A stretch of 64,000 bases of DNA. Origin: an uncultured Collinsella sp. (lineage in GTDB: Bacteria > Actinomycetota > Coriobacteriia > Coriobacteriales > Coriobacteriaceae). The stretch is from NCBI GenBank assembly GCA_938045065.1, contig CALIOA010000068.1, forward strand, positions 77,495 through 141,494. Direction: 5' to 3'. Positions 4,375-52,784 of the stretch are shown here, piece after piece. The notes below the pieces were generated by a model, which was not told the origin of the DNA, did not search any database, and worked only from the letters and a program-made list of their open reading frames with translations. Position numbers and translations under genes: made by a program. Each line of letters starts with the position of its first letter. The first letter of the stretch is position 1.

Positions 4375-4630
4375 ACCAGTGATCCTCCTTTATGGATCTG
4401 TGCCGCCCCGTGTCGTTCCGGGCGGCGTCGTACAGATTTGCCCAGCCTGCGTAAACCGCGCAGCCAGACATGGCGTTCTATGTTATCGCACCCGCGTCGA
4501 TGTGCCGCGAAAAAGTAGCTCTTACCCAAAGACTTGACGGAGACGAAACAATTGACGCACCGCGGCACCCGCCCGCGCTATTCACGTGCGACAATATGCC
4601 CCAATAAAACAGCACTTGGAAAGGCCCATC

Positions 4631-7629: not shown

Positions 7630-7787
7630 GTAAGAAACTCATCTCAAAGCACCGCCCCACCCCAAGGCGCCACGCATCCCAAAGTGTCACTCGCACTTCG
7701 ATGCCCCCAACAGCAACAAGCCCCTCCCATCCAAATTCAGATATATATATGTTGGGTTGCTTGTTCGAACACAGCCAAAAATGCCCA

Positions 7788-7912
7788 GGGCTCGGTAAGG
7801 GTTAACTTTCCAACGCACTCCGCAGGACGCAAAAAGGCTCGCCGCACGAAGTGCGCAGCGAGCCTTTTTGCATGTCCGAGGACGCGTTGGAAAGTTAACC
7901 CTTACCGAGCCC
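7788..7912. repeat. ~125-bp palindromic element, copy A (conserved centre, variable complementary outer arms)
   Basis: Outer arms GGGCTCGGTAAGGGTTAACTTTCCAACGC/GCGTTGGAAAGTTAACCCTTACCGAGCCC flank a core ACTCCGCAGGACGCAAAAAGGCTCGC-CGCACGAAGTGCG-CAGCGAGCCTTTTTGCATGTCCGAGGAC. A second copy sits at 10600-10726. Confidence 0.7.
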
Positions 7913-7936
7913 GGACCTTATAGAGCCGTCCTTAGC

Positions 7937-9995: not shown

Positions 9996-10599
9996 TGACG
10001 AGCGCCCTCTTCCTTTTCAACTGACACACTAGATAAACCGTTGGAAGGATACGCCGCTCACCGAAAAACACCACCGTCCACCGACTCATTAACACAACGT
10101 TCATATTTGACCCACAGCAAAACGGCCACGACCCCAAACGGGACCGCGGCCGCCTGTAAAAGACACAATAGACAGGATGACTTACGCAGCTCCGAGGCAA
10201 ACATCTACCCCGAGATGTACGCACGTAAGTCATTTTGCATAAATTCGTTAATTAATTGCATAAAATGGTGCAAGGATTTCTAGCCGTAACAGGGTAGTAC
10301 CCTCCGGAGCGTGCATTTTCGCGAGTATTCAGCATCGCCGGATAAGATTTTGGTGTCAAAAGTCTTTCAAAAGGTAGATAGTCCTCATGGCTCGTCCCAT
10401 CTGGATAGCAAGCGGCGAGAAACCAGCTATATATGGACATCGCCAAGGCCCAATTGGCGCGCAAAAGCATCAACAGGGACCGCAAACGCCACCTATGGTC
10501 CTATACATCAATCATTGGCTGCTGAAAACTCCGTTTTTTGCACGTCGCCCCAGGCACCACCCTCACCCAGCAGTAATCCACCGAAGACCGGACATCGCA

Positions 10600-10726
10600 G
10601 GGCCCGCCATTAGTTTACTTTTAGGCACACTCCGCAGGACGCAAGAAGCCCTCGCCGCACGAAGTGCGCAGCGAGGGCTTCTTGCATGTCCGAGGACGTG
10701 CCTAAAAGTAAACTAATGGCGGGCCC
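10600..10726. repeat. ~127-bp palindromic element, copy B
   Basis: Same core as copy A, with compensatory changes in the inner stem (GCAAGAAGCCCTCGC/GCGAGGGCTTCTTGC) and different but perfectly complementary outer arms (GGGCCCGCCATTAGTTTACTTTTAGGCAC/GTGCCTAAAAGTAAACTAATGGCGGGCCC). Confidence 0.7.
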
Positions 10727-10747
10727 GGACGACTACAGGGCTATCGA

Positions 10748-25369: not shown

Positions 25370-25372
25370 GCG

Positions 25373-25456
25373 CAGCGTCGACCGGTCCGCCGTTCGTTAG
25401 AACGGCGGAACTGAGGGCAGCGTCGACCGGTCCGCCGTTCGTTAGAACGGCGGAAC
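25373..25456. repeat. tandem direct duplication (2 x 39 bp, 45-bp period) of a hairpin downstream of htpG
   Basis: CAGCGTCGACCGGTCCGCCGTTCGTTAGAACGGCGGAAC occurs at 25373-25411 and 25418-25456, each with a 10-bp stem TCCGCCGTTC/GAACGGCGGA. Confidence 0.6.
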
Positions 25457-37242: not shown

Positions 37243-37274
37243 GAGGATTCGAATCCCCAGCCGCCATTCTTGAT
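37243..37274 (-). repeat. terminal fragment (T-arm-like end) of the tRNA-associated repeat element
   Basis: GAGGATTCGAATCCCCAGCCGCCATTCTTGAT parallels the end of the full Ser-locus element (CTCGGGTTCGAATCCCCAGCGCCCTTTCTCGAT). Confidence 0.4.
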
Positions 37275-37317
37275 AACAAAAAAGGGCCCCAAATGGGACC
37301 CTTCTTTCAATTCATAC

Positions 37318-37465
37318 TGGCGGAGAGCTGGGGATTTCCGGGCATGCTACGCATGCCCTCCGGCTTCAAAGCCTGGCGGCTTTTCGCCCACGGGCTACAA
37401 ACGCTTTCGCGTTTGCTTAACGCCCGTGCCCTCTCGGGTTCGAATCCCCAGCGCCCTTTCTCGAT
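37318..37465 (-). repeat. tRNA-associated structured repeat element (Ser-locus copy)
   Basis: Starts with a 19-nt duplicate of the tRNA-Ser 3' end (TGGCGGAGAGCTGGGGATT on the plus strand). The core carries hairpin AAACGCTTTCGCGTTT and ends with a T-arm-like GGGTTCGAATCCCC. It is bounded by terminators at 37277-37307 and 37467-37494. Confidence 0.7.
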
Positions 37466-37466
37466 A

Positions 37467-37494
37467 ATAAAAAAGGGCCCCCGATGGGACCCTT
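37467..37494 (-). terminator. intrinsic terminator between tRNA-Ser and the repeat element
   Basis: AAGGGTCCC-ATCGG-GGGCCCTT hairpin with a T-run on the minus strand. Confidence 0.55.
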
Positions 37495-37508
37495 CTTTAA
37501 AGTTAAAC

Positions 37509-37599
37509 TGGCGGAGAGCTGGGGATTCGAACCCCAGATGCCCTTTTGGGGCATACTCGCTTAGCAGGCGAGCACCTTCGGCCTCTCGGTCAGCTCTCC
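37509..37599 (-). tRNA. tRNA-Ser (anticodon GCT), CCA encoded
   Basis: GGAGAGC acceptor, anticodon loop CTGCTAA, long variable arm and T-arm TGGGGTTCGAATCCCCA; 91 nt. Confidence 0.9.
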
Positions 37600-37691: not shown

Positions 37692-40133
37692 CTACCCCAG
37701 CGAGCGGTTGAGGGAGCCGAGCTCGTCGTTGCCCATGGTGCGCCACATTTGGAAGATGCAACCGCGTGCCAGGAAAAAGAAGCCGTTGTCGACCAGTTGC
37801 ACAGCGGCATCTGCCAGCTGATTCGTCACGGCGGACACTGGCGGCAGCTCGAGTCCAGCCTTGCGGATGGTCTCGACCGCTTCCTCGAACGTCGGAGGCT
37901 CGCTAACGCCCATCTCGTTCATAAGGCCCTGCATTTCTTCCAGCGCGCTACTGCCCGACTCCTCGCCGCGCGGCACGAGACGGTAACAAGCCAGCGCCAG
38001 GTCGAGCTGATCGCAATTCCAATAGGCAAACGCCAAGCGATAGAACAGGTAGCCGATTGCAGAACGATCGCTGGCAATACGTAGGCCGTGGCGCGCCACC
38101 TCGATAATCTCGTCAAAGCGCTCCAGACGCGCAAGCACGTTGATGAGCGCAAAGTGCGATTGCATGGACGAGCGCGCCAGATCGTAAAGATGGCGCACCT
38201 CGGGCAGCGCTCGTTCAAAGTCCTCTTGCTCGGCGTAAAAGCTGCAGATCTCGTGCTGGGCAAAGTACAGCGCATCGGGCGCACGGAGGATTCGCACAGA
38301 GCGATCTTCTTCCAACACCGGTAGCACCATGCGCACCAGCTGGTTGTCACAAAACTGCGTTTGAACCGGACCTGTCGCCAAAAGCTCGGCGACGGCGCAC
38401 TTAGCCTCCAACTCCTCGACAAGACGGGAAAAGCCTTCAAAGGCACCTGTACGGTCGACTTTTGCCTGCTCGCGCAATTCAACAACGCGGGCCACGTATG
38501 GGTCGTCGTCCTCTTCCATGACCTCCAACTCGTCAGCCGTATCGGCAAGCAGCAGATCGCGCAGCGCCGGCGGCAGTGTGCGATGGTCATCACGCGGACG
38601 AGCATGAACCTCCGCAGGCTCAATCGTCTCCGGAGCGGTTGACTCATACGCCTCAAGCACACGCTTGCACGGCATATCGTCCATGTCCATGCTCTCAAGA
38701 TCCTTGGCGACAGGCACGCAATCGGCCAGATAGGCCGCGCGCCCAAAGAAATACGTTGCGACAACGCGCTCGCCCTGCTCACTGTCGGGAGCAGCAATCT
38801 GCACATAGCAGCGCGTGATGCAGGTGCCCGCGGCAAAACACGCTGCCGCAAGCGTAAGTGCCACGCGCGCATCGTGCTCCGCGGCCCAGACCGCGCGCAT
38901 GTCCTCGTCCAGCTCGCGCCAGGCGTCATCCTGAGCGTCGTATTCACGTTGCGGCATGGCATCAACGACAGACTGCCCAAACCGAACGAGCATAATCCCC
39001 TCGGCAACGTTTGCCCGATAGGTATAGTCGAGCCGCGTGACCACGTTGAGCGCCTCAACGATTCGCGCAAAACGGGTGCGCACGTCCCACTCGCCGCCCG
39101 GCTGGCAAGCCACCGTACCCGGCTTGCCCCACGGGTTATCGCTCGAAGCCGTATCGAGCAGTCGGGGAACATCGTTGGTCGTCTTGGCGATATGCCACGC
39201 ATCAAAGAGCGCGCAGCCCTCAAGGCTCGGCGAGGATGCCGCAGGGACCAATCCGGCCCCGATGCGCTCAAGGATGCCGGAGAGGCGGTTGAGACGGCAC
39301 TCGATGGCAAGCAGCATGTCAATCTCGTCCTGGTCCAACAGGCTACGATCAAAATTGAGATAGAAAATCTTTGAGCGATCAATGCGAGCCAGGCTCATCT
39401 CGGACTTGGCAGCGATGGTGCGCAGGCGGGGCAAGTCAATTTCGCTCATAAGGGCGGCGGCATAGCGCTCGATACCGCTCGGATTCTCGGCATGGTCAAC
39501 GCGGTAGAGCAGCGTCTCGATAGCATCGGGGAGCGGTGCCGTGTTAAAGCCCAAAAACACCTCGACCGGCTCGGGCAACTTTACGAGCTTGATCTTGTCG
39601 ACAACGTTTTGCATACCCTCGTCGAGTCCGCCGGCGTCCGCCGTGTTCACAATAGCGCTTTCGGAGTTGGCAAATATCACGTAGCGCAAGAACATCGAGG
39701 CCATGAACTCACCGTAAGGAAGGGCGCGGGTCGAATTCCATGTCTCGTGGTCGGACTGCTCGCGCATGGGGCCTTCGGGAGAGCCGGCAGTTTGCGCACA
39801 CGCGCGCATTGCACCGTTGGCTTTCCTTACCATAATCTCACCAATACTGGAATCCGACTCGTCAAGGACCAGTTCCATGTCGGGATCGTTGGGCAGCGGA
39901 GCCTCGCTGACGGGGCGGTCCACCTTGTACACCTCACCCGAAACGCTTACGTAGCCCAAAAGCGACACATGACTTTTGCCAACGAACTCGACGACATAAC
40001 AAGATTCATGCTGATCCTCGCCAAAGAGTTTCCAGACCACGCCATATGAGCGTCCCGCAGGCTGCTCGGGCATCGCCGGAAAGCGCTTCTTGGGATCGAG
40101 AAACCTGAGCTTGTATGTCGGACGCTCTGCCAC
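37692..40133 (-). CDS. hypothetical protein, 813 aa, no recognisable catalytic motif; C-terminal region TPR/helical-repeat-like
   Basis: Long ORF with GC3-biased codon usage and no P-loop or other motif that I recognise; flanked by tRNA-Ser and the tRNA-Arg cluster. Confidence 0.7.
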   Translation of the reverse strand: MAERPTYKLRFLDPKKRFPAMPEQPAGRSYGVVWKLFGEDQHESCYVVEFVGKSHVSLLGYVSVSGEVYKVDRPVSEAPLPNDPDMELVLDESDSSIGEIMVRKANGAMRACAQTAGSPEGPMREQSDHETWNSTRALPYGEFMASMFLRYVIFANSESAIVNTADAGGLDEGMQNVVDKIKLVKLPEPVEVFLGFNTAPLPDAIETLLYRVDHAENPSGIERYAAALMSEIDLPRLRTIAAKSEMSLARIDRSKIFYLNFDRSLLDQDEIDMLLAIECRLNRLSGILERIGAGLVPAASSPSLEGCALFDAWHIAKTTNDVPRLLDTASSDNPWGKPGTVACQPGGEWDVRTRFARIVEALNVVTRLDYTYRANVAEGIMLVRFGQSVVDAMPQREYDAQDDAWRELDEDMRAVWAAEHDARVALTLAAACFAAGTCITRCYVQIAAPDSEQGERVVATYFFGRAAYLADCVPVAKDLESMDMDDMPCKRVLEAYESTAPETIEPAEVHARPRDDHRTLPPALRDLLLADTADELEVMEEDDDPYVARVVELREQAKVDRTGAFEGFSRLVEELEAKCAVAELLATGPVQTQFCDNQLVRMVLPVLEEDRSVRILRAPDALYFAQHEICSFYAEQEDFERALPEVRHLYDLARSSMQSHFALINVLARLERFDEIIEVARHGLRIASDRSAIGYLFYRLAFAYWNCDQLDLALACYRLVPRGEESGSSALEEMQGLMNEMGVSEPPTFEEAVETIRKAGLELPPVSAVTNQLADAAVQLVDNGFFFLARGCIFQMWRTMGNDELGSLNRSLG

Positions 40134-40236
40134 GAAATATCACCCTGATCGGTCGTCTAGAGAAGGAGCGGTCGCGGATAGGCCGCGATACCTACTCGGA
40201 ATCTTACACGAGTCGATAAGAAATCGTCCGCTTCAC

Positions 40237-40270
40237 GCCCGCGCCTCGACCGAGGTTCGAATCCATGCAG
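40237..40270 (-). repeat. terminal fragment of the tRNA-associated repeat element (Arg locus)
   Basis: GCCCGCGCCTCGACCGAGGTTCGAATCCATGCAG is identical to the end of the full Arg copies. Confidence 0.4.
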
Positions 40271-40318
40271 TGCTTACGTAAAAGAAAAGCCCCCGTTGCC
40301 GGGAGCTTTAATCTCAAA

Positions 40319-40460
40319 TGGTGCGGCGTATAGGATTCCGCGCATCCGCTGCGCGGATCCGCACCGGCTTCGCCCGCCTGCCGGCGTGCTCGCCCGCTCG
40401 CTAAAAACGCTCCGCGTTTTCTTGGCGCTCGCGCCTCGACCGAGGTTCGAATCCATGCAG
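40319..40460 (-). repeat. tRNA-associated structured repeat element (Arg-locus copy 1)
   Basis: Begins with TGGTGCGGCGTATAGGATT, a 19-nt duplicate of the tRNA-Arg 3' end. The core carries hairpins GGATTCCGCGC..GCGCGGATCC, CCGGC..GCCGG and AAAACGCTCCGCGTTTT, and it ends with GGTTCGAATCCATGCAG. Confidence 0.7.
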
Positions 40461-40469
40461 CGGCGACAT

Positions 40470-40497
40470 AAAAGAAAAGCCCCCGTTGCCGGAGGCT
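40470..40497 (-). terminator. intrinsic terminator after tRNA-Arg; the same hairpin recurs after every element copy
   Basis: AGCCTCCGGCAACGGGGGCT hairpin followed by TTTCTTTT on the minus strand. Confidence 0.6.
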
Positions 40498-40508
40498 TCA
40501 AGTTCAAT

Positions 40509-40585
40509 TGGTGCGGCGTATAGGATTCGAACCTATGACGTTCTGATTCGTAGTCAGACCCTCTATCCAGCTGAGGTAACGCCGC
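40509..40585 (-). tRNA. tRNA-Arg (anticodon ACG), CCA encoded
   Basis: GCGGCGT acceptor, anticodon loop CTACGAA and T-arm ATAGGTTCGAATCCTAT; own promoter TTGACC-17-CATAAT upstream. Confidence 0.9.
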
Positions 40586-40743
40586 AACTTGTTGATTATT
40601 ATGCACATGGACTGAATAATGGTCAAGCGTTTTTTCAAAAAAAGTTATCGAATTTGATTTTTACTCATTTGGAGGGCTTGGCACGATCTTCGGTGCATCG
40701 CGATATAAGAAAAGCCCCCGTTTCCGGAGGCTTTAAATTCAAT

Positions 40744-40888
40744 TGGTGCGGCGTATAGGATTCCGCGCATCCGCTGCGCGGATCCGCACCGGCTTCGCCC
40801 GCCTGCCGGCGGACTCGCCCGCTCGCTAAAAACGCTCCGCGTTTTCTTGACGCTCGCGCCTCGAACGAGGTTCGAATCTCCGCAATGC
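40744..40888 (-). repeat. tRNA-associated structured repeat element (Arg-locus copy 2)
   Basis: Same architecture as copy 1, with a slightly diverged right end (CGAACGAGGTTCGAATCTCCGCAATGCC). Confidence 0.7.
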
Positions 40889-40933
40889 CCCCGTAAAGGA
40901 AAAGCCCCCGTTTCCGGAGGCTAAAAACCCAAT

Positions 40934-41010
40934 TGGTGCGGCGTATAGGATTCGAACCTATGACGTTCTGATTCGTAGTCAGACCCTCTATCCAGCTGAG
41001 GTAACGCCGC
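40934..41010 (-). tRNA. tRNA-Arg (anticodon ACG), second copy
   Basis: Identical sequence to the copy at 40509-40585; own TTGACC-17-CATAAT promoter. Confidence 0.9.
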
Positions 41011-41100
41011 AACGCACGGATTATTATGCACGCGAGCCCCCGATGGGTCAAGCGACAATTTGGAAAATTTTTACGAAGCGCTGATTAAGTTGTCATGCTG

Positions 41101-41212
41101 ATCCGCACCGGCTTCGCCCGCCTGCCGGCGCGCTCGCCCGCGGGCTAAAATCGCTCCGCGCTTTCTTGACGCCCGCGCCTCGACCGAGGTTCGAATCCAT
41201 GCGGCGTCCGCC
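41101..41212 (-). repeat. tRNA-associated repeat element, 5'-truncated copy (lacks the tRNA 3'-end duplicate)
   Basis: Starts within the core at ATCCGCACCGGCTTCGCCCGCC; the rest is identical to the following full copy. Confidence 0.6.
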
Positions 41213-41252
41213 TAAAAGAAAAGCCCCCGTTGCCGGAGGCTTTAAGTTCGAT

Positions 41253-41402
41253 TGGTGCGGCGTATAGGATTCCGCGCATCCGCTTCGCGGATCCGCACCG
41301 GCTTCGCCCGCCTGCCGGCGCGCTCGCCCGCGGGCTAAAATCGCTCCGCGCTTTCTTGACGCCCGCGCCTCGACCGAGGTTCGAATCCATGCGGCGTCCG
41401 CC
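41253..41402 (-). repeat. tRNA-associated structured repeat element (Arg-locus copy 4)
   Basis: Full copy, bounded by terminators at 41213-41250 and 41403-41440. Confidence 0.7.
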
Positions 41403-41442
41403 TAAAAGAAAAGCCCCCGTTGCCGGAGGCTTTAAGTTCGAT

Positions 41443-41519
41443 TGGTGCGGCGTATAGGATTCGAACCTATGACGTTCTGATTCGTAGTCAGACCCTCTAT
41501 CCAGCTGAGGTAACGCCGC
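41443..41519 (-). tRNA. tRNA-Arg (anticodon ACG), third copy
   Basis: Identical sequence to the other two Arg copies. Confidence 0.9.
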
Positions 41520-46133: not shown

Positions 46134-46249
46134 GGTCTCTCCTCTGATAGGCACACGTTGGCACTAGGATACCCGCACGAAGCAGCAACGTGACATCAAC
46201 AAGAGACCCATAACAAAAAAGCTCCCATCGCTGGGAGCCCTTTCATTCA

Positions 46250-46399
46250 ATGGTGCGGGCGAAAGGACGTCCGCGTATCCGCTTCGCGGATCCGCACCGG
46301 CTTCGGCCGCCTGCCGGCGTCCTCGCCAGCTCGCTAAAAACGCTCCGCGTTTTCTTTACGCTCGCTCCTTCACAGGTTCAAGTCCCTGCGATGGGCCCA
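46250..46399 (-). repeat. tRNA-associated structured repeat element (Leu-locus copy)
   Basis: Begins with TGGTGCGGGCGAAAGGAC, an 18-nt duplicate of the tRNA-Leu 3' end. The core is ~90% identical to the Arg copies (ATCCGCTTCGCGGATCCGCACCGGCTTCG..GCTCGCTAAAAACGCTCCGCGTTTTCTT). It ends with CAGGTTCAAGTCCCTG, a T-arm matching the tRNA-Leu T-loop. Confidence 0.7.
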
Positions 46400-46438
46400 T
46401 AACAAAAAAGCTCCCATTACTGGAAGCTCTTTCATTTA

Positions 46439-46525
46439 ATGGTGCGGGCGAAAGGACTTGAACCTTCATGGGGTTGCCCCCATACGGACCTGAACCGTAC
46501 GCGTCTGCCAATTCCGCCACGCCCG
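46439..46525 (-). tRNA. tRNA-Leu (anticodon CAG), CCA encoded
   Basis: GCGGGCG acceptor, anticodon loop TTCAGGT, long variable arm and T-arm AAGGTTCAAGTCCTT; 87 nt. Confidence 0.9.
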
Positions 46526-46569
46526 CGTGCAGGAATTAGAATAACGGAGCGCCACCACGAACGCAAGAA

Positions 46570-52237: not shown

Positions 52238-52469
52238 GGAAAGCGCATCCCGTTTTTCGCAAAAGACTGGGATGTATTTTCCGTTCGAGGCCTCAATCGG
52301 AAAATGCATCCCGTTCTGAGCGCGAGATCTGGGACGCAGTTTCCGCCAAAGGCCGCAAAAGGAAAGCACGTCCCATTCTGACGCCGGATTCCGGGTCGCG
52401 CTTTCCCAAGCGACATCAAAGCGGAAAACGCATCCCACTCTGAAGCCAAATTCCGGGACGCAATTTCCG
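52238..52469. repeat. second tandem array of GGG-N6-TTTCC hairpin units (same family as 2288-2497)
   Basis: Units GGGATGTATTTTCCG/CGGAAAATGCATCCC, GGGACGCAGTTTCCG/GGAAAGCACGTCCC, GGGTCGCGCTTTCCC (identical to a stem in array 1) and GGGACGCAATTTCCG; conserved spacers ..TTCTGA..ATTCC. Confidence 0.7.
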
Positions 52470-52523
52470 CAGAGCCCTCGATAAAAGAAAAGGACCCCTT
52501 TGCAGAGGTCCTAGTCAATTCAA

Positions 52524-52668
52524 GGTGGCGGGGAAGGAAATCGCGCCCGCGCTCCGCGCGTGCGGACCGCTGCGGCGCTTGCGCGCCTTGCGAGCTCCGC
52601 TGGCAAACGCTCACGCGTTTACTCAGCTCCGCGCCCTCACGGGGTTCGATTCCATGTGGGGGCTGCAT
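52524..52668 (-). repeat. tRNA-associated structured repeat element (Phe-locus copy; more diverged core)
   Basis: Begins with GGTGGCGGGGAAGG, a duplicate of the tRNA-Phe 3' end. The core keeps hairpin AAACGCTCACGCGTTT, and the end carries GGGGTTCGATTCC, matching the tRNA-Phe T-loop. Bounded by identical terminators at 52483-52511 and 52669-52697. Confidence 0.65.
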
Positions 52669-52697
52669 AAAAGAAAAGGACCCCTTTGCAGAGGTCC
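52669..52697 (-). terminator. intrinsic terminator after tRNA-Phe (repeated after the element)
   Basis: GGACCTCTGCAAAGGGGTCC hairpin followed by TTTTCTTTT on the minus strand. Confidence 0.6.
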
Positions 52698-52709
52698 TAA
52701 ACAATTCAA

Positions 52710-52784
<75 letters not shown>

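Follow-up and report, generated by a model that had tools for sequence, protein, structure and literature searches.

Attachment-site (att) repeats of integrative elements occur at the T-loop sublocation of transfer RNA (tRNA) and transfer-messenger RNA (tmRNA; gene ssrA) genes, ssrA islands among them (PMC3146451). This study describes a repeated non-coding element of ~145 nucleotides (nt) that lies behind the tRNA genes of a 64,000-nt stretch of DNA from an uncultured Collinsella sp. (assembly GCA_938045065.1, contig CALIOA010000068.1, forward-strand positions 77,495 to 141,494), hereafter the window, and centers on the tRNA-Arg(ACG) array at 40237-41519. With att repeats and cis-mobilizable elements (CIME), the element has in common a direct repeat of the tRNA 3' end that starts in the T-loop, an intact tRNA, tRNA and tmRNA genes as targets, and tandem accretion. 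In contrast to them, its unit measures only ~190 nt and is gene-free, the same folded and structurally selected core recurs behind at least nine genes, an extra inverted T-arm is present, and no integrase is linked to it.

No literature description of the element was found. The reading favored here, for which we consider the case evenly balanced, is that the copies form an undescribed family of small non-coding elements on the 3' flank of terminal tRNA and ssrA genes in Collinsella, mobile, non-autonomous, and targeted to the T-loop. Further comparisons are made below with integron attC sites, CTX-phage attP, repetitive extragenic palindromic (REP) sequences, miniature inverted-repeat transposable elements (MITE), IS200/IS605 elements, TnpB, and the features of long terminal repeat (LTR) elements, short interspersed elements (SINE), and retroplasmids.

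Organization of the element at the window tRNA genes

The window contains six tRNA genes (Ser-GCT, three identical Arg-ACG genes, Leu-CAG, and Phe-GAA), all on the minus strand, and features at these loci are given in tRNA orientation. All four loci (Ser, Arg, Leu, and Phe) carry the element on the tRNA strand directly after the terminator, at a distance of 40-60 nt from the tRNA, and a repeat search over the whole window returned one constant order: tRNA, terminator, element, copy of the tRNA 3' end, and terminator. Each unit consists of an inverted T-arm copy of the neighboring gene (approximately tRNA positions 51-62, up to 76), a core of ~100 nt, and a direct copy of the 3' end. The seven window copies align at a mean column identity of 79%, and a 26-mer pattern of the core matched the window five times where zero matches were expected.

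At the Arg locus, three full copies, one truncated copy, and one far-end stub are interspersed with the three identical tRNA genes, an arrangement already recognized in the initial annotation of this DNA. The array begins with tRNA-Arg gene 3 (41443-41519), its intrinsic terminator hairpin (41410-41433), and full copy e4 (41253-41401; 145 bits with the covariance model introduced below), in which an inverted T-arm at ~41385-41401, a five-helix core, and a tRNA 3' end copy at 41253-41272 can be distinguished and which is followed by a terminator copy (41220-41243). Copy e3 (41096-41211) lacks helix P4 and the tRNA 3' end copy and adjoins the promoter region of tRNA-Arg 2, a junction that recurs in other species (L019, L021, and L046; loci collected in the genome scans are designated by L numbers). 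The promoter-like sequence TTGACC-17-CATAAT (41023-41051) then precedes tRNA-Arg gene 2 (40934-41010), its terminator (40903-40922), full copy e2 (40744-40891; 150 bits), and a terminator copy (40711-40734). The same promoter-like sequence (40598-40626) stands before tRNA-Arg gene 1 (40509-40585), which is followed by its terminator (40476-40499), full copy e1 (40319-40468; 148 bits), and a terminator copy (40286-40309). The array closes with a terminal stub (40230-40277) comprising the first ~45 nt of the element, namely the inverted T-arm, P1, and the 5' strand of P2.

Each full Arg copy opens with GGATTCGAACC, and its last nucleotides, GAATCCTATACGCCGCACCA, are exactly those of the tRNA 3' end. 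Six minus-strand terminator hairpins are present, one per tRNA and one per full copy; both observations agree with the initial annotation. Three of its details on the arrangement required revision. The TTGACC-17-CATAAT promoter applies to two of the three tRNA-Arg genes, whereas the third has TTGACT-17-TTTTAT (41560-41532). The truncated copy exists, but the part it lacks is the 3' part in tRNA orientation and appears as the 5' part only when read on the plus strand. The terminal fragment is likewise real, but its length is ~45 nt rather than 34, and it meets the conserved flank at a GGACG microhomology.

An equivalent core had been noted at other tRNA loci, and it was found at all three. The tRNA-Ser(GCT) locus (37245-37599) comprises the tRNA (37509-37599), a terminator, a Ser-type element (37318-37454), a terminator copy, and a 24-nt stub (37245-37268). 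This stub is an inverted copy of the whole tRNA-Ser 3' end (TGGCGG..CTGGGGATTCGAATCC), including TGG for CCA, with a 4-nt deletion. At the tRNA-Leu(CAG) locus (46207-46526), the tRNA (46440-46526) and terminator are followed by a Leu-type element (46251-46399) and a terminator copy, and at the tRNA-Phe(GAA) locus (52481-52784), the tRNA (52710-52784) and terminator are followed by a subfamily-B element (52521-52668) and a terminator copy. The repeat period at these loci is 186-191 nt, and their left ends are inverted copies of the local T-arm: GCTGGGGATTCGAACCC at Ser, AGGGACTTGAACCT at Leu, and GGAATCGAACCCC at Phe. The tRNA-Phe gene has a U4.C69 acceptor-stem mismatch and encodes ACC followed by T, leaving the terminal A of CCA unencoded, and the right-end copy in the Phe element shares both the mismatch and the ACC-T ending. 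The neighboring genes in the window are housekeeping genes (serS, dacA, tatD, and one for an SPFH protein), and neither integrase nor transposase genes were found among the neighbors of the element there.

A covarying fold on the tRNA-sense strand

The fold was determined on an alignment of 36 representatives (less than 93% identical) from eight locus types. RNAalifold gave four hairpins, and P2 (columns 28-34 with 61-67) was added by inspection, replacing the RNAalifold helices 11-13/30-32 and 65-66/98-99; the P2 pair 28/67 occurs as four pair types (C-G, U-A, A-U, and G-C). Instead of the GC-rich core of three hairpins proposed in the initial annotation, the core has five covarying helices (P1, P2 with tandem G.A or G-C pairs, P2b, P3, and P4) and is closed by pairing of the element ends. 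For the pair counts, the structure comprised six helices and 37 pairs; 500 shuffles and sliding of the partners by 1-3 columns served as controls. Standard pairs occupied 90.7% of cells (28-44% with slid partners), 16 pairs were changed on both sides (10.3 as the shuffle mean and 2-5 when slid), and the covariation score was 0.261 (0.02-0.07 when slid), a value that none of the 500 shuffles reached. The center of P2 is GG/CC in 13 sequences and GA/GA, forming tandem G.A pairs, in 18.

Within the paired cells, G.U combinations outnumber A.C combinations by 58 to 15, indicating that the tRNA-sense strand is the folding strand. Single-sequence folding gave z = -2.05 for the sense and z = -0.79 for the antisense strand, and a covariance model built from the alignment recovered all window copies, on the minus strand only, at 77-150 bits. 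The loops are GNRA-like or G-N-A, and internal loops (GTNAA/A and GA/GAA) and junctions (GGTGC and GCGGA) are conserved. The element therefore displays the compensatory substitutions and strand-specific G.U pairs generally sought in structured RNA, and the strong covariation agrees with the earlier description of a discrete structured element. Coding potential was ruled out by 1-2-nt insertions and deletions between types together with the helix covariation.

The end helix measures 10-13 base pairs (bp) in the Ser, tmRNA, and Leu-TAA types, which shows the terminal closing stem to be real, and only 6 bp in the Arg and Phe types. The initial annotation had interpreted the paired ends as a tRNA-like acceptor/T minihelix ending in CCA and had likened it to the tRNA-like domain of tmRNA. 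This idea fared poorly: in the Arg copies, only GGATTC and GAATCC (6 bp) pair, the acceptor 3' strand and CCA are left single-stranded, a T-loop is missing, and neither ARAGORN nor the Rfam tRNA model makes a call on the element. In comparison with tRNA-like domains (that of tmRNA, mascRNA, and YrlA), the element has in common the T-stem/acceptor 3' strand ending in CCA and a closing helix around several arms, whereas it differs in lacking a T-loop, in having no paired acceptor stem in most types, in giving no covariance-model match, and in the absence of CCA from its tmRNA-type copies. Mimicry of a tRNA by the element is at most weakly suggested.

Rfam 15, applied to the window at the gathering threshold, returned only tRNAs and the aspS motif and did not match the element. 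When the search was relaxed to E<=10 for the Arg, Phe, and Ser copies, nothing scored above 25 bits, compared with thresholds of 37-73.

Distribution among genomes

A core-only pattern was scanned against 185,579 species genomes and located at least 120 loci, across which a profile search gave 217 matches; more than 200 further Collinsella or human-gut loci beyond the window carry the element. Among the 80 loci listed, nearly all were titled Collinsella or Coriobacteriaceae, with three titled 'uncultured bacterium' and one Oscillospiraceae bin. The full copies in these at least 120 loci lie 39-60 nt downstream of a same-strand tRNA (Arg-ACG, Gly-CCC, Leu-CAG, Ser-GCT, Gly-GCC, Phe-GAA, or Leu-TAA), the remaining ones being downstream of another copy or of tmRNA. 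Where ARAGORN called no tRNA, 26 of 29 elements were preceded by a tmRNA whose end lies 50-59 nt upstream or one further unit away. With Glu-TTC as a further host gene, the same ~100-nt core is hosted by at least nine different genes. No element was located away from tRNA and tmRNA genes among the loci found, and the invariable tRNA adjacency of the core that the initial annotation had marked for verification was borne out, with tmRNA added, in at least 120 loci. The tRNA genes that directly precede another tRNA (Cys, Val, and Leu-GAG) carry no element, which is confined to tRNAs that terminate a transcription unit.

The element occurs in part of one genus only. The Leu-CAG, Leu-TAA, and Ser-GCT genes of two more distant species, Collinsella sp. 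zg1085 and AGMB00827 (SerS 83-84% identical), are without it. In the L127 lineage (SerS 80%), both Leu-CAG and Leu-TAA are followed by copies that have diverged. A second scan, in which metagenome contigs were searched with the B-type core, found this core behind Phe (61), Leu-TAA (2), and Glu-TTC (1). One metagenome locus, L182 (contig OGQD01010650.1, ~400-700), has a chimeric element behind tRNA-Glu(TTC), with a Glu-matched left end and B-type core and with the right end, trailer, terminator, and flank from tRNA-Phe; this copy is either an inter-locus recombinant, a rearrangement, or an assembly chimera.

Junctions with the local tRNA gene

The direct 3' end copy begins at T-loop nt 59, right after the conserved C56-G57-A58, and the right junction always lies 3' of the T-loop motif TTCRA. 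Counted from this junction, the right end is identical to the tRNA over exactly 18 nt at Leu-CAG (39 of 40), Ser (16 of 17), Gly-GCC (11 of 11), and Gly-CCC (15 of 16). In Arg and Phe the identity extends to 20 nt, only because CG(G)A, the end of the core, resembles C56-G57-A58 of the T-loop. The left end matches local T-loop positions 59-60 in all types; beyond these positions it follows the local T-stem in the Ser, tmRNA, Leu-TAA, and Gly-CCC types and reads CATGG in the Arg, Phe, Gly-GCC, and L127 Leu-CAG types.

The direct copy usually continues through CCA, the trailer, and the intrinsic terminator. For Arg, Leu-CAG, Ser, and Phe, this continuation closely reproduces the trailer and terminator of the tRNA itself, reaching 0-16 nt beyond the T-run, and Leu-TAA has an older terminator copy (~70% identical) with compensatory stem changes. 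The terminator behind the Gly-GCC element is unrelated to that of its tRNA, and Gly-CCC has, instead of a terminator, a partial second element and a third 3' end copy. Three copies of the tRNA 3' end are also seen at L012, and tmRNA-type copies have only 12 nt of the 3' end (GATTCTCCGCGC), with no CCA end and no terminator. In more distant relatives, the Gly-GCC tRNA cluster is rearranged and the Leu-TAA trailers are highly diverged. At L126 (2020-2135, minus strand, Collinsella sp. AGMB00827), no element accompanies tRNA-Leu(TAA), and five degenerate tRNA 3' end copies of 24-31 nt stand in tandem behind the gene, each beginning in a T-loop-like TCGAAT and most of them ending in CCACCA or CGCCA, which suggests repeated T-loop-directed events in the genus.

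Variation and constraint

The core falls into two subfamilies that are ~55% identical and share the same fold; each occurs behind several different tRNAs, and the ends of subfamily members always match the local tRNA. The core behind Leu-TAA is A-type in the C. aerofaciens group and B-type in L127. Empty sites were found for Arg (L017 and L082), Leu (L082), and Phe (L099), the Ser loci in L021, L034, and L089 retain a stub only, and the filled (L131) and empty (L099) Phe sites differ by one unit within the same flank. Arrays have a period of ~190 nt and hold up to four copies per locus, with array sizes that differ between species. Combined, these presence/absence and array-size differences supply the copy-number variation among relatives that the initial annotation had suggested looking for.

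Across 26 distinct tmRNA-type loci, conservation of the element is 0.93-0.99 per 20-column bin, compared with 0.95 for the tmRNA 3' end, 0.76-0.86 for the next 85 nt, 0.80-0.85 for the stub, and 0.62 for the flank. Full copies are thus as strongly conserved across species as the tmRNA 3' end, whereas adjacent spacers and truncated stubs are not. Compensatory double changes were also observed within a single orthologous tmRNA locus type, in P4 (tm_L115) and in P3 (tm_L081 and tm_L006a). A terminator is kept after the element even where it is not a copy of the tRNA's own, as at Gly-GCC, and the Leu-TAA terminator is kept with its compensatory stem changes.

Other features of the window and related loci

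A second repeat family lies beyond Phe- and tmRNA-locus elements (window 52380-52480; L001 1750-1850; L123 5400-5609; L124 100-300) and consists of tandem hairpin units of ~60 nt, GGGAC(G)CGCTTTCC...GGAAA(G)CG(T)CCCGGAAT. Between the Ser and Arg loci, an open reading frame of 813 amino acids (37692-40133, minus strand) had no Pfam or NCBIfam match, and its start region is kept beside the Arg array in other Collinsella (L017 and L082). Elsewhere in the window, the aspS RNA motif (RF02930) is present at full length at 4386-4469 on the minus strand (76 bits), and an exact 40-nt tandem duplicate (25372-25411 and 25417-25456) includes the hairpin CCGCCGTTCGTTAGAACGGCGG. Two pairs of ~50-nt repeats (7786-7916 and 10598-10730), 75% identical and 2.8 kb apart, have members that are mutually inverted within each site, and they may bound a duplicated or mobile segment.

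Interpretation of the element

Under the favored reading, the element is, or recently was, mobile and non-autonomous and would have inserted by recombination at the tRNA or tmRNA T-loop, the classical attB sublocation, by means of an enzyme whose gene lies elsewhere. Signs of movement are the distribution of the core subfamilies over several tRNAs, the empty sites, the absence from the same tRNAs in more distant species, and isolated cross-type core identities of up to 97%. On both sides, the element would come to be flanked by the tRNA 3' end and terminator, by which the tRNA stays intact. The folded sense strand would be the form under selection, and as judged from the sequence this form is predicted to be a read-through RNA that starts at the tRNA promoter and is ended by the terminator behind the element. 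An RNA is favored because terminators are maintained behind the element and because its loop and G.A motifs are typical of RNA. Alternatively, the selected form may be a folded single DNA strand, in which the end helix would rebuild a T-arm-like duplex beside the complete inverted site.

A rebuilt, target-like duplex of this kind is the topology of integrated CTX-phage attP and of integron attC. The element resembles attC, including its arrays in clusters of attC sites lacking integron-integrases (CALIN), and CTX attP(+) in a one-strand structure that is conserved over sequence, in inverted arms that rebuild a target-like duplex, and in a complete inverted site ~100 nt from a hybrid site; arrays without an adjoining recombinase are shared with CALIN. 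Unlike these systems, it has no GTTRRRY core site and no cassette open reading frames, its target is the T-loop rather than attI or dif, and its branched 100-nt core has conserved loops and locus-varying arms. By reading of the alignment, no attC R''/L''-L'/R' boxes were seen, and the T-loop GTTCGAA departs from GTTRRRY.

Several points weigh against a mobile, T-loop-targeted element. The duplicated target is 12 nt long at tmRNA, rises to 18 nt at Gly loci, and measures 56-90 nt elsewhere. A range of 12 to ~90 nt is inconsistent both with a target-site duplication of fixed length and with one attachment site, and it is explained by no model built here. We know of no mechanism that makes an inverted and a direct copy of a target together, and the matching of both ends to a new tRNA is likewise explained by none of the models built. 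Cores from one locus type are 91-98% identical to each other, compared with 50-92% for cores from different types (up to 97% in isolated cases), which makes most copies vertically inherited, and the presence/absence pattern could result from loss alone, via recombination between the flanking repeats. At the element loci, no linked recombinase, transposase, or reverse transcriptase was found. No promoter was found between the tRNA terminator and the element, so that any RNA depends on read-through of a strong terminator. Finally, the GCGAAGC and GCGAAAGC loops, located in P2b and P4, are very stable mini-hairpins in single-stranded DNA as well, and sequence alone therefore does not separate RNA from single-stranded DNA.

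A more specific proposal, offered tentatively, is that the copies represent a mobile element of a new class, able to home to T-loops of tRNA and tmRNA genes in general and to build its own ends from the target. The folded RNA or single-stranded DNA would present the antisense T-arm and the sense 3' end copy and pair with both target strands, and this guide- or bridge-like module would serve a candidate recombinase or reverse transcriptase.

There is a modest chance, which we regard as unlikely, that the element is instead a structured non-coding RNA of the host and not mobile. It would be co-transcribed with the tRNA or tmRNA by terminator read-through and excised by tRNA-processing enzymes, its 3' end being a copy of the tRNA 3' end, trailer, and terminator, and its 5' end pairing with that copy; the locus-specific ends would be kept by selection on the closing helix, and copies would have spread by duplication and gene conversion. 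Orthologous loci show strong purifying selection on both sequence and fold, including compensatory changes among copies of a single locus type, as expected of such an RNA, and the sense-strand bias, the GNRA-type loops, tandem G.A pairs, and conserved internal loops, the terminators retained behind the element, and the long closing helix of the Ser, tmRNA, and Leu-TAA types point the same way. However, a host function sits poorly with an element confined to part of one genus, missing at the same tRNAs in zg1085 and AGMB00827, and dispensable at Arg, Leu, and Phe in some genomes, and one tRNA carries different core subfamilies in different lineages. The closing helix of merely 6 bp in the Arg and Phe types, the tmRNA-type copies without a CCA end or terminator, and the missing promoter also argue against it.

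It is improbable that the copies are inert scars of serial integration and decay (of prophages, integrative and conjugative elements, or CIME-like elements) at an attB running from the T-loop to the 3' end, with the core as a leftover attP arm. The initial annotation had set aside a simple attL/attR duplication, and for an ordinary pair around a gene-carrying island that view is upheld, neither an integrase at the loci nor phage or plasmid homology having been found, but its firmness does not stand: an exact 18-20-nt direct repeat flanks the insert and has its start in the T-loop, as is classical for site-specific insertion, so that an att-type origin is less firmly dismissible. Such an origin would also account for 3' end copies that number three at L012, for the tandem degenerate copies at L126, and for the two unrelated terminators at Gly-GCC, as expected if the element brought its own. 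Furthermore, prophages use ssrA here (L123 3590-5134 and 5020-5135; L124 600-720), and in L123 the gene for a 514-amino-acid large serine recombinase runs into a degenerate tmRNA 3' end copy that is followed by the host terminator and a tmRNA-type element.

Against scars, a BLAST search of the core matched none of 50,697 phage and 72,556 plasmid records, and a scan of IMG/VR gave four matches, all of them tmRNA-type copies situated on host DNA beside the ends of ssrA-integrated prophages, indicating that the element is not phage-borne. Independent decay would not give one ~100-nt core with the same fold and boundaries behind at least nine genes, compensatory substitutions and conservation at the level of the tmRNA 3' end would be unexpected, and an attL/attR pair does not include an inverted T-arm such as the one at the left end. 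In the window, housekeeping genes, rather than an integrase, adjoin the element.

A retro-mobile origin, attractive for the 18-nt rule, is likewise improbable. Here, a reverse transcriptase would copy the element RNA, switch template to the tRNA or tmRNA transcript, and stop at modified A58, after which the hybrid complementary DNA would recombine with the tRNA gene. The 18-nt rule is known from retroviral primer-binding sites, and recombination of such hybrid complementary DNA is described for Neurospora mitochondrial retroplasmids. With LTR primer-binding sites, SINEs, and these retroplasmid hybrids, the element shares the copying of the last 18 nt of a tRNA (59-76), a complementary stretch at the other end, and integration at tRNA genes. 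A junction placed exactly at nt 59, with 18 nt copied, over many tRNAs, an orientation that is always that of the tRNA, and the restriction to tRNAs that end transcription units are in keeping with this origin, as is L127 Leu-TAA, where the duplicated segment stops exactly at the end of the terminator T-run. At Phe and Leu-CAG, however, the duplication continues for 8-16 nt beyond the T-run and takes in flank that the empty site has as well, implying that the template was DNA or a read-through RNA and not a terminated transcript. In contrast to the tRNA-related retroelements, the copy includes the trailer and terminator as well, the complementarity of the left end is to the T-arm and not to the CCA end, the host is bacterial, and no reverse transcriptase was found with the element. 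A left end serving as primer-binding site was rejected, most types having no complementarity to the last 10 nt of the tRNA. As to retron non-coding RNA, a terminal helix is present, and no adjoining reverse transcriptase gene was found. At one of four tmRNA loci tested, L118, an RT-2 RNA motif (146-367; 105 bits) precedes the tmRNA-type element by 5 kb; the other three loci have no such motif.

Lastly, insertion in the style of IS200/IS605 appears unlikely, as the left flank of the Leu type carries TTGA, the reverse complement of the junction motif, and not TCAA. The element shares with REP/REPIN, MITE, and IS200/IS605 palindromes that it is a short, non-coding, multi-copy, intergenic hairpin sequence, often located after terminators, and with the TnpB right-end guide RNA a scaffold followed by ~18-20 nt of flank and a junction 3' of a short motif (TTCRA). 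In contrast to these families, it is found only behind tRNA and tmRNA genes, its terminal repeats are target-derived, and it has no fixed short duplication; P1 and P4 are dissimilar, neither tnpA nor tnpB was found in the element loci, and the Rfam HEARO and IS605 motifs did not match it. MITE membership is contradicted by inverted ends that are local tRNA copies differing by locus.

Conclusions

In bacteria, mobile DNA lands most commonly at genes for tRNA and tmRNA, and small, gene-less elements specialized for them are not known to have been described. The five-helix fold, together with ends copied from the local tRNA in both orientations, points to a target-copying or target-matching step, which lies outside what known integrases, transposases, and retroelements explain. 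The element also causes assembly breaks and rearrangements at tRNA loci, for example the chimeric L182 copy. If the copies act as a recombination substrate, they could point to a new T-loop-directed enzyme; if they act as RNA, they would constitute a new, abundant non-coding RNA in a common human gut genus, with at least nine loci per genus and up to four copies per locus.

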